A program made the position numbers and the translations under genes. The notes under the pieces are model-generated. The model worked only from the letters and a program-made list of their open reading frames with translations. It made no database searches and was not told the DNA's origin. From positions 1 through 12,490 of the forward strand of contig CAZXFU010000038.1 of the NCBI GenBank assembly GCA_964640345.1: a DNA stretch of 12,490 bases. The letters run 5' to 3'. Source of the DNA: an uncultured Eubacteriales bacterium (lineage in GTDB: Bacteria > Bacillota > Clostridia > TANB77 > RGIG9151). Positions 4,290 to 12,490 of this stretch are shown here, one piece after another. Numbering within the stretch: position 1 is the stretch's first letter; each line of letters opens with the position of its first letter.

Positions 4290-5140
4290 TGATTGCTCCA
4301 AAGCGGGATTTGGTTATTGAAAATATAAAAAACAGTATAGGAAATGGCGAGTTTAATTATAAAGTTGAAGTAGATGACCCGGATTTGTCATATGAAGAGA
4401 AAAGGCAACTCTTAGGAGACTTTATAAAATATAGAAAAACATTTTCTTATAAGGTAAAAAATTGTATTAATAGAATGATAGTAAATTCTGCAACATGGTA
4501 TATTAATCGCACGACAGAAATAAAAGGAATTGAAAATATTAAGGGGATACAAAACAGTGCTATTATAACAAGCAATCATTTTAATCCTATAGACAATACG
4601 ATAATTAGAGATTTTGTAATGAAATCCGGAAAAAGAAGATTATATATCATAAGCCAAGAGACTAACTTGGCTATGAGAGGGATAATTGGCTTTTTGATGA
4701 AATATGCAGATATTATTCCGATAAGCAGCGAAAGGAAATATATGGAAAATGTTTTCCCGAAGCTCATAGAAGAAAGGATAGAAAACAAGGATTTTGTACT
4801 AATTTATCCTGAACAAGAAATGTGGTTCAATTACAGAAAACCTCGAAATCTAAAAAGAGGGGCGTATTACTATGCTGCTAAGTATAATGTGCCTATTATT
4901 TCTTGTTTCGTGGAAATTAGAAATTTGGAAGAGATGGAAACAATAGAATTTCATAAGGTAAAGTATATTTTGCATATATTAAAGCCAATTTTCCCGGATT
5001 CGAGCAAATCAATAAAAGAAAATAGTGAAAATATGTGTAAAATTGACTATAACCAAAAAAAAGAAGCATATGAAAAAATTTATGGTAAAAAACTAAATTA
5101 TGAATTTGAACCGGAAGATATTGCGGGTTGGGTGTCTTAA
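4289..5140 (+). CDS. PlsC/LPLAT-family acyltransferase (canonical H-x4-D)
   Basis: ITSNHFNPIDN (NHxxxxD) and LIYPEQEMW blocks. The start overlaps the upstream stop (TAATG at 4287-4291). Confidence 0.75.
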   Translation: MIAPKRDLVIENIKNSIGNGEFNYKVEVDDPDLSYEEKRQLLGDFIKYRKTFSYKVKNCINRMIVNSATWYINRTTEIKGIENIKGIQNSAIITSNHFNPIDNTIIRDFVMKSGKRRLYIISQETNLAMRGIIGFLMKYADIIPISSERKYMENVFPKLIEERIENKDFVLIYPEQEMWFNYRKPRNLKRGAYYYAAKYNVPIISCFVEIRNLEEMETIEFHKVKYILHILKPIFPDSSKSIKENSENMCKIDYNQKKEAYEKIYGKKLNYEFEPEDIAGWVS

Positions 5141-5173
5141 AAATATTATTTTATATTAAAAGAAGGCGAAGAA

Positions 5174-5605
5174 ATGAATGATGAGTTAAAAAATGGAATT
5201 ATGCCTATTGTGAAGCTACTTAGTGAAGTTATTGAAAAAAAAGTAAATTCTGAGTTAAAAGAGCAGGGTATAACAGTTAGCCAATTGAGGGTCCTAGGCG
5301 TAGTGGCCCAAAGCGGTGTCGATGATGTTTCGTTGAAAGAAATCGAGGGGGTTTTACGTACTGCTCAAGCAACTATTGCCGGAATAGTGTCTAGGTTGGA
5401 AGATAAAAATCTTGTTGTTGGTTTTTCTGAGCCAGAAGATAAAAGAGTTAAAAGAATAAAGCTAACAGAACGTGGGAAAGAACTTATTGAAAGTACAAAG
5501 GACAAGGTATTAGATATGGAAGAAATATTGACTTCAAATTTTAGTGAATATGAAAAAGAAGAGCTTATTCGTTTACTTGGCAAGATGTATGATGCTATAA
5601 AATAG
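5174..5605 (+). CDS. MarR-family winged-helix transcriptional regulator
   Basis: 143 aa with a typical MarR layout: ITVSQLRVLGVV..., LKEIEGVLRTAQATIAGIVSRLEDKNLV, and wing KRVKRIKLTERG. It starts only 33 nt after the acyltransferase stop, with AGAAGG 7 nt upstream, so it is probably co-transcribed. Confidence 0.85.
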   Translation: MNDELKNGIMPIVKLLSEVIEKKVNSELKEQGITVSQLRVLGVVAQSGVDDVSLKEIEGVLRTAQATIAGIVSRLEDKNLVVGFSEPEDKRVKRIKLTERGKELIESTKDKVLDMEEILTSNFSEYEKEELIRLLGKMYDAIK

Positions 5606-10036: not shown

Positions 10037-10324
10037 CTATTGTTTTATTTGTGGTATAGACATTTTTGACGTATTACTTCCCATATTTTGGGCATTTTCT
10101 GAAGCTTGGCTTGTAATATTGCTTGTATCAATTTTTGTAGAAACGTTTCCATTTTGTGGTGTCTCCATACTTTTTATTGTTTGATTAATTTGTTGAGGTG
10201 TCATATTTCCATTATTTTTACCCGAATTGCTATTTAACCAATTCCCTGAGGCACCCATTACACTTACAAATAGTACTAAACAAGCTAGTCCTATGAATAC
10301 TGCAATCCAATTCCTGTTATTCAT
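10037..10324 (-). CDS. Hypothetical small membrane-anchored protein with an N/Q/S/T-rich extracytoplasmic tail
   Basis: It has an N-terminal hydrophobic segment WIAVFIGLACLVLFVSVMGA followed by low-complexity polar sequence. AAAGGAA lies about 11 nt upstream of the ATG. I recognise no homology. I prefer it over the overlapping + strand ORF 10227..10421, which has a TTG start and no SD. Confidence 0.5.
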   Translation of the reverse strand: MNNRNWIAVFIGLACLVLFVSVMGASGNWLNSNSGKNNGNMTPQQINQTIKSMETPQNGNVSTKIDTSNITSQASENAQNMGSNTSKMSIPQIKQ

Positions 10325-11341: not shown

Positions 11342-11614
11342 ATGAATAAGGCAGATTTAGTTTCTATGATCGCTGCAAAGAGCAATTTAACAAAGAAGGA
11401 TTCAGAGAGTGCATTAAATGCATTTGTTGAAACAGTACAAACAGCACTTAAGAAGGGTGAAAAGATTCAATTAGTTGGATTTGGAACATTTGAAATACGT
11501 AACAGAGCTGCAAGAACAGGTGTTAACCCTAGAACAAAACAAGCCATTAAAATACCTGCAACGAAAGCTCCTGTATTTAAGGCTGGAAAAGCATTAAAAG
11601 ATTCTTGTAAATAA
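11342..11614 (+). CDS. hup: DNA-binding protein HU
   Basis: MNKADLV...LVGFGTFEIRNRAARTGVNPRTKQAIKIPATKAPVFKAGKALKD is the canonical HU/IHF fold sequence. AGGAGG lies 8 nt upstream. Confidence 0.95.
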   Translation: MNKADLVSMIAAKSNLTKKDSESALNAFVETVQTALKKGEKIQLVGFGTFEIRNRAARTGVNPRTKQAIKIPATKAPVFKAGKALKDSCK

Positions 11615-11686: not shown

Positions 11687-11715
11687 TTGACTTTGCAGTA
11701 TACATAATATATAAT
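11687..11715 (+). promoter_or_regulatory. Strong sigma-A promoter driving the riboswitch unit
   Basis: TTGACT (11687-11692), exactly 17 nt, then TATAAT (11710-11715), preceded by an A/T-rich UP-like stretch. Confidence 0.7.
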
Positions 11716-11724
11716 AATAATATG

Positions 11725-11812
11725 AAATCCGAAATAGCAAACCGATTGAAAGGTCGGGGCGCAAAGCTACAGTCCTAAAGTCGTGAGACTATGGAGGCTG
11801 GGTTGCCGAAGA
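11725..11812 (+). promoter_or_regulatory. c-di-GMP-I (GEMM-I) riboswitch aptamer
   Basis: AGCAAACC-GAUU-GAAA-GGUC-GGGGCGCAAAGCU ... GACUAUGGAGGCUGGGUUGCCGAAG. This matches Vc2 from memory: GGCAAACC-AUUC-GAAA-GAGU-GGGACGCAAAGCC ... GGGGUUACCGA. It has the GNRA-capped hairpin, the CGCAAAGC junction, a P3 hairpin (CUACAGUC/GACUAUGG) and the GGGUUnCCGA 3' strand. Confidence 0.85.
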
Positions 11813-11830
11813 TAGAGGTAAGTTTGATCT

Positions 11831-11866
11831 CCGCTTTGGTAACTCGAAGTGGGGTTTTTCATTTTT
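11831..11866 (+). terminator. Riboswitch expression-platform terminator
   Basis: CCGCTTTG (11831-11838) pairs with CGAAGTGG (11845-11852), 8 bp with 2 wobbles and a 6-nt loop, followed by GGTTTTTCATTTTT. Confidence 0.7.
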
Positions 11867-12218
11867 AAGGATGTTTTCGTAAAGAAATGCCTAATTTAGT
11901 TGGGCGAATGAGAAGCGAGCTTGTTGGTAATTCGACTTATGAAAGGATGGTTGAATACTAGTTAGCAAGGAGGCTAAATTGCTTGGCAATGGTTAAGCGG
12001 TATAGCATGGAGGCTAACTACAAACTGACAGGTAAAGCAAATTTCAATTAAAGTTTTCTTTTTGTAACACTTGTTTTTTACATGACTGTTTTTTCGTAAC
12101 GGTGGTGTAAGTGAAGGAGGGGGATGCCAAAAGGAAACATTACTTAAAAATGATAGATGAAATGAGAGTTCGGTCTTCGGATTTGATAGAGGGAGTAGAA
12201 TCCCTTTTATATAGTAAG
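11867..12218 (+). ncRNA. Unassigned structured read-through RNA downstream of the riboswitch (no credible ORF)
   Basis: The segment is bounded by two + strand terminators. There is no ORF of 61 aa or more in any frame, and by hand only 5-26 codon ORFs. GC content is higher than the surrounding intergenic DNA. It has several clean hairpins and repeated GGAGGCTAA. The boundaries are inferred, not measured. Confidence 0.45.
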
Positions 12219-12260
12219 AAAAGAGCCTAATCGGTATCGAGATTTAGGCTCTTTTCTTTT
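12219..12260 (+). terminator. Strong intrinsic terminator closing the riboswitch-tail unit (looks bidirectional)
   Basis: AAGAGCCTAA (12221-12230) pairs with TTAGGCTCTT (12244-12253), followed by TTCTTTT. The reverse complement is also followed by a T-rich run. Confidence 0.8.
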
Positions 12261-12273
12261 AAAAGAAGAAATC

Positions 12274-12304: not shown

Positions 12305-12490
12305 TTAAGCACGTTCAATTTTATTAGAACGAAGGCACTTAGTACAAACACTAATAGATTTTATAGTTCCGTCTACGTTAGCACGAACATTTTTTACGTT
12401 TGCATTCCAAGCTCTGTTTGATTTTCTGTTTGAGTGACTTACTTTGAGACCAAAGTTAACTCCTTTACCACAAATTTCACATTTTGCCAT
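12305..12490 (-). CDS. rpmB: 50S ribosomal protein L28
   Basis: MAKCEICGKGVNFGLKVSHSNRKSNRAWNANVKNV...VCTKCLRS is the L28 signature. The ATG falls exactly at the window edge, so the promoter and RBS are outside the window. Confidence 0.95.
   Translation of the reverse strand: MAKCEICGKGVNFGLKVSHSNRKSNRAWNANVKNVRANVDGTIKSISVCTKCLRSNKIERA

Follow-up and report, generated by a model that had tools for sequence, protein, structure and literature searches.

Few riboswitches control a noncoding RNA instead of an mRNA, and the best functional analogy for the locus described here is EutX/Rli55 of Enterococcus and Listeria, where binding of adenosylcobalamin truncates the RNA and the tail of the long form sponges a regulator in trans (PMC5821096). 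Our subject is a unit at positions 11687-12262 (plus strand) of contig CAZXFU010000038.1 (assembly GCA_964640345.1) from an uncultured Eubacteriales bacterium, the whole 12,490-nt stretch of which is referred to below as the window. In this unit, an aptamer of the cyclic di-GMP class I type (c-di-GMP-I, or GEMM-I) is followed by a terminator and then by a 396-nt tail, which we read as probably the product of a stand-alone noncoding RNA gene that is gated by a cyclic-dinucleotide riboswitch and specifies no conserved protein. This reading is carried by what computation gave for the parts of the unit and their conservation, a terminator and an antiterminator that exclude each other, the absence of any conserved open reading frame (ORF) and the preservation of helices. 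EutX/Rli55 shares with the unit the order of aptamer, terminator and noncoding tail with a 3′ end of its own. The ligand and aptamer differ, however, and the EutX tail offers EutV a dual hairpin of the ANTAR type as its site, whereas inspection of the hairpins in the unit's tail gave no pair of hexaloop hairpins of this kind.

Precedents also exist for c-di-GMP-I aptamers. A first-pass annotation of the window, made from the letters alone, knew of no characterised standalone RNA with such an aptamer, which was wrong in view of merRNA (PMC3627812), RCd11/RCd12 (PMC7699646) and an orphan element of Clostridioides difficile (PMC11477304). The merRNA of Bdellovibrio bacteriovorus is 445 nt long, starts with a c-di-GMP riboswitch, has no conserved downstream ORF and occurs in one lineage only (PMC3627812). 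Compared by description, it resembles the unit in being noncoding and lineage-restricted, with the riboswitch at its start and without a conserved ORF, but merRNA is defined by massive expression and a proposed role as ligand sponge, whereas the unit has a clear termination platform and a tail supported by covariation. In C. difficile, the c-di-GMP-I riboswitches Cdi1_4 and Cdi1_5 lie upstream of the antitoxin RNAs RCd11 and RCd12 (PMC7699646), and here the likeness in layout is close: an OFF switch with its own promoter, a terminated RNA of ~140 nt, and a noncoding read-through RNA of ~400 nt ending at its own terminator. RCd11/RCd12 are, however, antisense to a toxin gene, reside in prophages and have a second, stronger promoter, whereas the unit has chromosomal neighbours, a large conserved fold, no conserved ORF on the opposite strand and no conserved internal promoter. 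An orphan c-di-GMP-I riboswitch is also found between CD2517 and CD2517.1 in C. difficile, with other copies upstream of proteins of ~58 aa (PMC11477304). These are likewise Clostridia elements without an ordinary gene downstream, although they either lack a described tail or precede a conserved small ORF, whereas the unit carries a conserved structured RNA and no conserved ORF. The same species reportedly has a c-di-GMP-II riboswitch fused to a group I ribozyme, which also places a c-di-GMP aptamer directly upstream of a large structured RNA, but there the aptamer class differs, and the unit's tail shows no group I intron signature in Rfam at E-values up to 10.

None of the traits that mark an antitoxin, an ANTAR sponge or a small-protein gene is seen in the tail, and for a CsrB-like RNA the motif counts give a mixed picture (see below). 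Riboswitch-controlled noncoding RNA is already known, and what is new is the ~400-nt conserved structured tail without an Rfam, phage or plasmid relative, which, judged from the sequences, appears to be a new RNA family, although under regulation of a known kind, from an uncultured rumen or gut Clostridia lineage. Set beside the c-di-GMP-I precedents (merRNA, with a proposed function; RCd11/RCd12, where the gated product is a dispensable long form of the antitoxin; and an orphan without an assigned function), the gated tail of the unit is long and conserved, with pair-preserving changes and invariant loops that resemble binding sites. It adds a candidate structured RNA family and an A20-type aptamer in Firmicutes, although the narrow distribution and the uncultured host limit its immediate reach.

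A unit bounded by its promoter and terminator

The unit consists of a promoter, the aptamer, a terminator/antiterminator pair, the tail and a terminator of its own, and it faces the convergent rpmB (Table 1). The first-pass annotation had placed the promoter, a second terminator at 12219-12260 and the convergent rpmB much as we find them. The promoter recurs in all relatives, where its -35 and extended -10 regions are conserved across the alignment, and the second terminator, which was missed by a simple scanner, is the main hairpin at the 3′ end of the fold and has a counterpart at the corresponding place in each clade, with a differing stem sequence. Since rpmB has a minus-strand terminator of its own, the hairpin at 12216-12262 belongs to the plus-strand unit. 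The A-rich stretch, hairpin and U-run at 12209-12262 resemble the 3′ end of an Hfq-type small RNA (sRNA), and the hairpin is possibly a bidirectional terminator facing rpmB.

Table 1 Features of the riboswitch unit and its neighbours in the window.
Feature	Position	Strand	Details
Sigma-70-type promoter TTGACT-17-TATAAT	11687..11715	+	11 of 12 consensus positions matched
Transcription start	near 11722	+	predicted
c-di-GMP-I (GEMM-I) aptamer	11726..11810	+	RF01051, 75.4 bits against a gathering score of 35
A instead of model G	11736	+	RF01051 model position 11, unpaired base just 5′ of the first helix
Antiterminator hairpin	11800..11845	+	aptamer 3′ strand GGGUUGCCGAAG (from 11800) pairs with CUUUGGUAACUC (to 11845)
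Riboswitch terminator	11829..11866	+	11-bp G+C-containing stem 11829-11854, then TTTTTCATTTTT to 11866
Tail RNA body	11867..12215	+	conserved, structured, without a conserved ORF
Invariant tail 5′ end AAGGAUGUUUUC	11867..11878	+	can pair with 12133-12145, closing helix H1 (consensus fold)
Small hairpin	11889..11905	+	GCCU/GGGC in the window, GUCC/GGAC in L015, both sides changed
Long arm	11919..12033	+	10-bp helix 11919-11928/12024-12033 enclosing a three-way junction
Hairpin with AAAGGAUGG at its tip	11930..11956	+	mostly kept, with a both-sided change at one pair; weaker in L015
Near-symmetrical hairpin	11959..12020	+	internal loop AAGGAG/AUGGAG, 14-bp apical helix, AAUG loop
AAGGAG	11967-11972	+	across a near two-fold symmetric internal loop from A[U/G]GGAG (AUGGAG in the window), 12007-12012
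Invariant U-rich strand GUUUUCUUUUUGUA	12053..12066	+	can pair with 12125-12138 (13 bp in the window fold)
Block TGAAGGAGGGGGATGCC, Shine-Dalgarno-like, then AUG	12112..12128	+	invariant at 17 of 17 positions in every clade; mostly unpaired in the models
Two 3′ hairpins	12163-12186 and 12190-12206	+	97-98% of cells paired; both-sided changes at one pair
Conserved A-rich stretch AUAUAGUAAGAAAA, tail terminator, U-rich run	12209..12262	+	17-bp stem 12216-12258 (fold)
hup	11342-11614		upstream of the unit; Pfam Bac_DNA_binding
rpmB's own terminator	12303-12269	-	between rpmB and the tail
rpmB	12305-12490	-	convergent; Pfam Ribosomal_L28

All relatives of the unit come from metagenomic contigs (one contig name includes "bovine metagenome" and one "Hadza"). 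The HU protein of the window is also encoded on two other such contigs, where the intergenic region is almost identical, and homologs of MazG in a large protein collection led to three more loci (L015, L007 and L008). L015, with a MazG identity of 73%, has the order hup, riboswitch, tail and rpmB and a unit ~71% identical to that of the window, while in L007 and L008, which have the riboswitch, the sequence stops where the tail begins. Four further loci (L018, L022, and L019/L020, which are copies of one sequence) came from scanning metagenomes with a two-block pattern taken from the tail, and a look-up of a variant of the L28 protein (P0126) gave another nine; the L28 clusters of P0126 and P0127 by themselves comprise 30 sequences, mostly from contigs beyond those examined. 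With the unit as query, nhmmer detected it in each of the loci named and in none of the others among the 47 examined. The sequences fall into three clades, namely the window, L015 with L007 and L008, and a clade A of nine distinct sequences that are 89-100% alike, and the identity of the unit between clades is 71-80%. The upstream gene is hup in two clades and a LytR_cpsA_psr gene in clade A, whereas the downstream gene is always the convergent rpmB, and the unit therefore persists as a unit while its upstream gene differs. Conservation sets in at the -35 region and declines beyond the tail terminator, and the flanking spacers cannot be aligned.

Aptamer, ligand and expression platform

The aptamer call in the first-pass annotation was backed by a covariance-model search, which scored well above the RF01051 threshold, with a match that spans the full model (positions 1-87 of 87; E = 1e-13) and is the sole above-threshold Rfam match in the window; the aptamers of the relatives score 72.8-75.7 bits. 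In the RF01051 alignment both helices pair; the loop of the first hairpin is GAAA and the second hairpin contains CCUAAAG and CUAUGG, which gives the GNRA tetraloop and receptor expected of a c-di-GMP-I riboswitch. The unit's aptamer carries an A at 11736, invariant in all clades (including position 5408 of L015 and all clade A copies), where the model has a G, and by our own mapping we take this position to be G20 of Vc2, a ligand contact. Equivalents of A47 and C92 are present in the aptamer, and with A in place of G20 the full contact set is not.

The ligand contacts of c-di-GMP-I riboswitches are G20, A47 and C92 in Vc2 numbering, of which G20 reads one guanine of c-di-GMP (PMC5888326, PMC6140456). 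A G20A change in Vc2 makes it bind c-di-GMP and 3′3′-cyclic GMP-AMP (3′3′-cGAMP) alike, and natural A-variants extend from a cGAMP riboswitch that is reportedly highly specific (Gs1761 of Geobacter) to bispecific ones, such as Cbe 1-2 of Clostridium beijerinckii, which binds c-di-GMP at 30 nM and cGAMP at 463 nM (PMC6140456). The unit's aptamer shares with these GEMM-Ib and bispecific variants the fold, the retained C92 and, by our mapping, the A for G20, whereas selectivity for cGAMP is not a property that can be read from its sequence. Its family assignment is secure at the level of the fold, and its subtype is A20, the signature of bispecific or cGAMP-sensing variants, so that the ligand may be c-di-GMP, 3′3′-cGAMP or both. 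Given this spread of natural A-variants, with Cbe 1-2 preferring c-di-GMP, we still regard c-di-GMP as the likeliest signal for a host among the Clostridia.

Downstream of the aptamer, the expression platform shares sequence with it, as in c-di-GMP-I riboswitches. The terminator that the first-pass annotation had set at 11831-11866 was recovered as a stem with a U-tract starting two positions earlier, and in the five representatives that were folded its energy is -12.5 to -14.6 kcal/mol, with stem changes that keep the pairing (CUCCGC/GUGGGG vs UUCCAC/GUGGA). The competing antiterminator has -16.9 to -18.6 kcal/mol in each of these five, and its apical stem covaries, with GAGGU/AUCUC in the window and GAAUU/AAUUC in clade A. 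The segment CUUUGGUAAC is common to both structures, as the 3′ strand of the antiterminator and the 5′ half of the terminator, and both are kept in the five representatives. Since a ligand-bound aptamer would hold the shared strand, the terminator would be favoured, and from these modelled pairings we infer OFF-switch logic; most class I elements of C. difficile are described as OFF switches as well (PMC7699646).

The gating would then work as follows. Transcription would start at the strong housekeeping-type promoter. With ligand bound, the aptamer would keep its 3′ strand, the terminator would form, and only a terminated RNA of a predicted ~140 nt would be made. When ligand is scarce, the 3′ strand of the aptamer would pair with the 5′ half of the terminator and the polymerase would read through, giving a predicted RNA of ~540 nt, the 396-nt tail of which would fold into a conserved multi-helix structure and end at its own terminator. 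One alternative takes the RNA to be mainly a ligand sponge, in which abundant aptamer RNA would buffer c-di-GMP and the tail would affect only its stability, as proposed for merRNA, a c-di-GMP store of 445 nt with a c-di-GMP riboswitch and no conserved ORF (PMC3627812). The near-consensus promoter of the unit would suit such a role, but the complete and covarying terminator/antiterminator platform points to gating, and a sponge would not need a ~400-nt conserved tail with invariant loops, so that we regard this as very improbable.

Structure and coding potential of the tail

The 396-nt tail folds at -121.4 kcal/mol, compared with -88.4 ± 5.4 for shuffled sequences (z = -6.1). In a consensus fold of 112 pairs, obtained with RNAalifold on 11 sequences, 96.8% of the cells form a standard pair, against 41-51% when the partners are slid, and six pairs have changed on both sides, against one to four in the slid controls and 2.1 ± 1.0 in column shuffles, of which none of 500 reached six. 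The closing helix H1 has 12 pairs with 100% of cells paired, four of them varying on one side. Three long helices predicted from the window alone (10, 14 and 13 bp) are kept in the other clades despite several substitutions and indels, save for one mismatched pair in L015 and one gap column of the alignment in clade A. In the long arm, 10 of 10 pairs of the 10-bp helix are kept in every clade, although four to seven of them differ from the window in each relative (hand count), including a U-A to A-U swap in L015. The near-symmetrical hairpin has loops that are invariant save for one U/G difference, and its 14-bp apical helix (11973-11987/11992-12006) shows one mismatch and a compensatory U-A to C-G change, both in L015. 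Three helices unsupported in the other clades were dropped (11911-11915/12042-12046, the apical part of 12070-12119, and 12151-12179).

Between 12053-12066 and 12125-12138, 11-12 pairs are possible in every clade, with compensated single-base indels by our own reading of the alignment. This U-rich strand and the tail 5′ end, both invariant and both containing GUUUUC, compete for the 3′ segment 12125-12145: pairing as H1 closes the whole ~280-nt domain, while the other alternative uses the internal strand. Both are compatible with all substitutions, and by the same reading the indels of clade A and L015 are accommodated as well, which in terms of the modelled pairings may point to a conformational switch inside the tail. 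The invariant purine-rich blocks AAGGAG, A[U/G]GGAG and GAAGGAGGGGGAUGCC sit in loops or junctions of the models.

Identity searches placed the tail in no described family. With E-values of up to 10 allowed, neither the window nor L015 gave an Rfam family besides RF01051, the sub-threshold matches in the tail lying mostly over terminators, and no covariance model of a group I intron or other known large RNA matched it. Plasmid and phage searches returned no relatives of the tail, and a mobile or phage origin was rejected on these grounds; exact 17-mer matches in viral contigs were chance hits to unrelated, apparently coding sequence of high GC content, and a pattern match at 145-214 of L021, a high-GC contig with CCCTAA telomere-like repeats, was likewise put down to chance.

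No ORF of at least 60 aa lies between hup and rpmB, in agreement with the first-pass claim that none of 61 aa or more occurs downstream of the riboswitch. That annotation's count of ORFs of 5-26 codons was right in that only short ones occur, but the longest in the tail is a 39-codon GTG ORF at 12111-12230, of which the 26-codon ORF is the C-terminal part. No plus-strand ORF is shared by the three clades with the same start, frame and length, the relatives in these clades have no conserved protein ORF at the position of the tail, and the tail thus holds no conserved ORF with a ribosome-binding site that would mark a small-protein gene downstream of GEMM-I. A 54-aa gene called in L027 and L028 was discarded as a TTG ORF that starts inside the riboswitch terminator, where no ORF starts in the window or L015. 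ORFs on the minus strand opposite the tail are 16-51 aa long, their extent is not conserved, and none is toxin-like by reading of the translations.

The first-pass annotation had named the tail RNA or a micro-peptide in it as the regulated product. The conserved unit, its kept helices and the lack of a conserved ORF favour the RNA, and we hold it unlikely that the tail encodes a micro-peptide, with the riboswitch regulating that peptide or a translation-dependent event. Two candidates exist. One is a 7-codon ORF at the invariant AUG 12124 (MPKGNIT; MPRGNVA or MPRENVA in clade A), which is favoured by the invariance of GAAGGAGGGGGAUGCC and ends at the same TAA in the window and clade A by our own translation of the aligned sequences. 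The other is the ORF that starts at alignment column 256 (GTG 12111 in the window, ATG elsewhere; MKEGDAKRK...), a start common to every sequence because that stretch is invariant. However, the gap from GGAGG to AUG 12124 is 3 nt, which we judge too short for efficient initiation in Firmicutes, and the ORF from 12111 has no Shine-Dalgarno (SD) sequence and varies from 16 to 39 codons. A 1-nt insertion in L015 alters both frames, giving 24 instead of 7 codons and 16 instead of 39, and the 39-aa ORF, which also has no Pfam match and no exact gene on record, was rejected as a gene. Substitutions within the 7-codon ORF are purine or pyrimidine transitions that keep the pairing with the two U-rich strands, and the 17-nt invariant block has no third-position and no synonymous variation. 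Several c-di-GMP-I riboswitches of C. difficile do precede small hypothetical proteins of ~58 aa (PMC11477304), but a micro-peptide here would explain only ~25-120 nt of a conserved structured tail of 396 nt.

Weighing the readings of the tail

The points that weigh against a gated noncoding RNA, or against our view of its role, are these. Read-through of the riboswitch terminator is a prediction from the sequence, and the invariant SD-like sequence followed by AUG could mean translation. Most of the support for the helices comes from one-sided transitions through G-U pairs, with both-sided change in only six pairs, and the consensus structure was tested on the same alignment from which it was derived. 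For this reason the minimum-energy fold of the window alone was also checked in the other clades, where overall it keeps 43-52% of changed pairs, the same as slid controls, so that only its core helices stand and the fold as a whole does not. The phylogenetic depth is small, with three metagenomic clades. The identity of the tail (66-79%) is about that of third codon positions in the adjacent rpmB (65-79%), and overall identity is therefore no proof of selection. As read from the alignments, the case for selection is made instead by invariant blocks set among variable stretches, by helices that stay paired, by the promoter and terminators being retained, and by the limits of conservation against unalignable flanks. 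Finally, nothing speaks directly for a decoy role of the tail. With 8-12 occurrences against 7.5-10.5 in dinucleotide shuffles, GGA is not enriched, and AAGGA (3-5 against ~1; P 0.003-0.19) and GGAGG (3 against 0.6-1.1; P 0.02-0.10) are enriched only modestly. A sponge of the CsrB/RsmZ type is expected to carry numerous GGA motifs, chiefly in hairpin loops, and in the tail three conserved motifs are placed in loops or junctions.

The third-position comparison would fit the view that the tail is a functionless, decaying remnant of a former downstream gene or of its 5′ untranslated region. The narrow distribution would also fit, as would the transposase or 73-aa ORF that related lineages hold at the position of the unit. 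Yet variable stretches are interspersed with invariant blocks as long as 17 nt, helices stay paired in spite of substitutions and indels, and a dedicated tail terminator stands in all clades next to spacers that cannot be aligned. Searches of the tail by tblastn with proteins from that position or neighbourhood in relatives (the 73-aa ORF, YceD and UDG) gave nothing below E = 1, and a decayed gene seems quite unlikely to us. A cis effect of the unit on rpmB, exerted by convergent transcription or by a bidirectional terminator, is suggested by the constant tail-to-tail arrangement of the two and by the A-tract upstream and U-tract downstream of the tail terminator, which could work both ways; however, rpmB is separated from the tail by its own terminator, the tail terminator should stop the plus-strand transcript before it reaches rpmB, and the conserved 350-nt fold would not be needed, all of which leaves this reading hardly probable. 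Least probable of all is that the tail is the antisense antitoxin of a type I toxin-antitoxin pair, like RCd11/RCd12 behind Cdi1_4/Cdi1_5, for although layout and sizes match (a ~140-nt terminated RNA and a 400-540-nt read-through RNA ending at its own terminator; PMC7699646), we found no conserved minus-strand ORF and so rejected a type I toxin opposite the tail, none of the minus-strand ORFs resembles a hydrophobic toxin with a charged tail by our own reading, neither a conserved promoter-like site for a minus-strand gene nor a second conserved promoter inside the tail is present, and the genes around the unit in the window are those of an ordinary chromosome, not of a phage.

For the gated noncoding RNA that we prefer, we infer that the tail acts in trans, and our best guess, made with low confidence, is a trans-acting decoy or base-pairing regulator that is produced at low levels of cyclic dinucleotide. 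A decoy would display the three invariant SD-like purine blocks, and the A-rich stretch, terminator and U-tail would provide an end resembling that of an sRNA. Its synthesis would fall in the low-c-di-GMP state, the one in which other bacteria are motile. The most specific version, which we consider doubtful, is that the tail is a new class of large structured bacterial RNA with a conserved ~290-nt core and two competing closing helices, produced at low ligand only and serving as a decoy whose three invariant SD-like loops titrate an SD-recognising partner, be it the anti-SD of the 30S subunit, a CsrA-type protein or a C-rich sRNA. A CsrA sponge was rejected as the main reading, GGA not being enriched, and is kept only as one of low probability. 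If true, an SD-decoy tail would couple the level of a second messenger directly to global control of translation, for example of motility genes; more broadly, if a partner of the tail were found, this would reveal a route from cyclic-dinucleotide level to regulation by RNA in trans in Clostridia.

Several related loci differ at the position of the unit. A first scan of a genome collection with MazG gave three contigs of metagenome-assembled genomes at ~62% identity, none of them with the riboswitch, and the unit is absent from relatives at ~60-71% MazG identity (L003-L005 and L012-L017), where hup is followed by yceD. It is also absent from the L28 lineages P0138 and P0139. In P0139 (L032-L038, L040 and L041) an IS200-type Y1 transposase gene, convergent to rpmB, lies ~120 nt downstream of it at the position of the unit, and in P0138 (L042 and L043) a Cys-rich 73-aa ORF occupies this place next to rpmB. 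Elsewhere in the window, a 95-aa ORF without a Pfam domain on record lies upstream of mazG (10037-10324, minus strand), and ORFs of 95-106 aa, also without Pfam matches, are called at the matching place in L001, L002, L009, L010 and L012-L017. Near-perfect long inverted repeats, similar to miniature inverted-repeat transposable elements, occur in the spacers of L015 (5190-5338 and 5941-6111), L007 (~5230-5385) and L009 (~4990-5180) and produce spurious plant-miRNA matches in Rfam. Several contigs, L010 and L011 among them, break right after hup, which suggests a multi-copy element.

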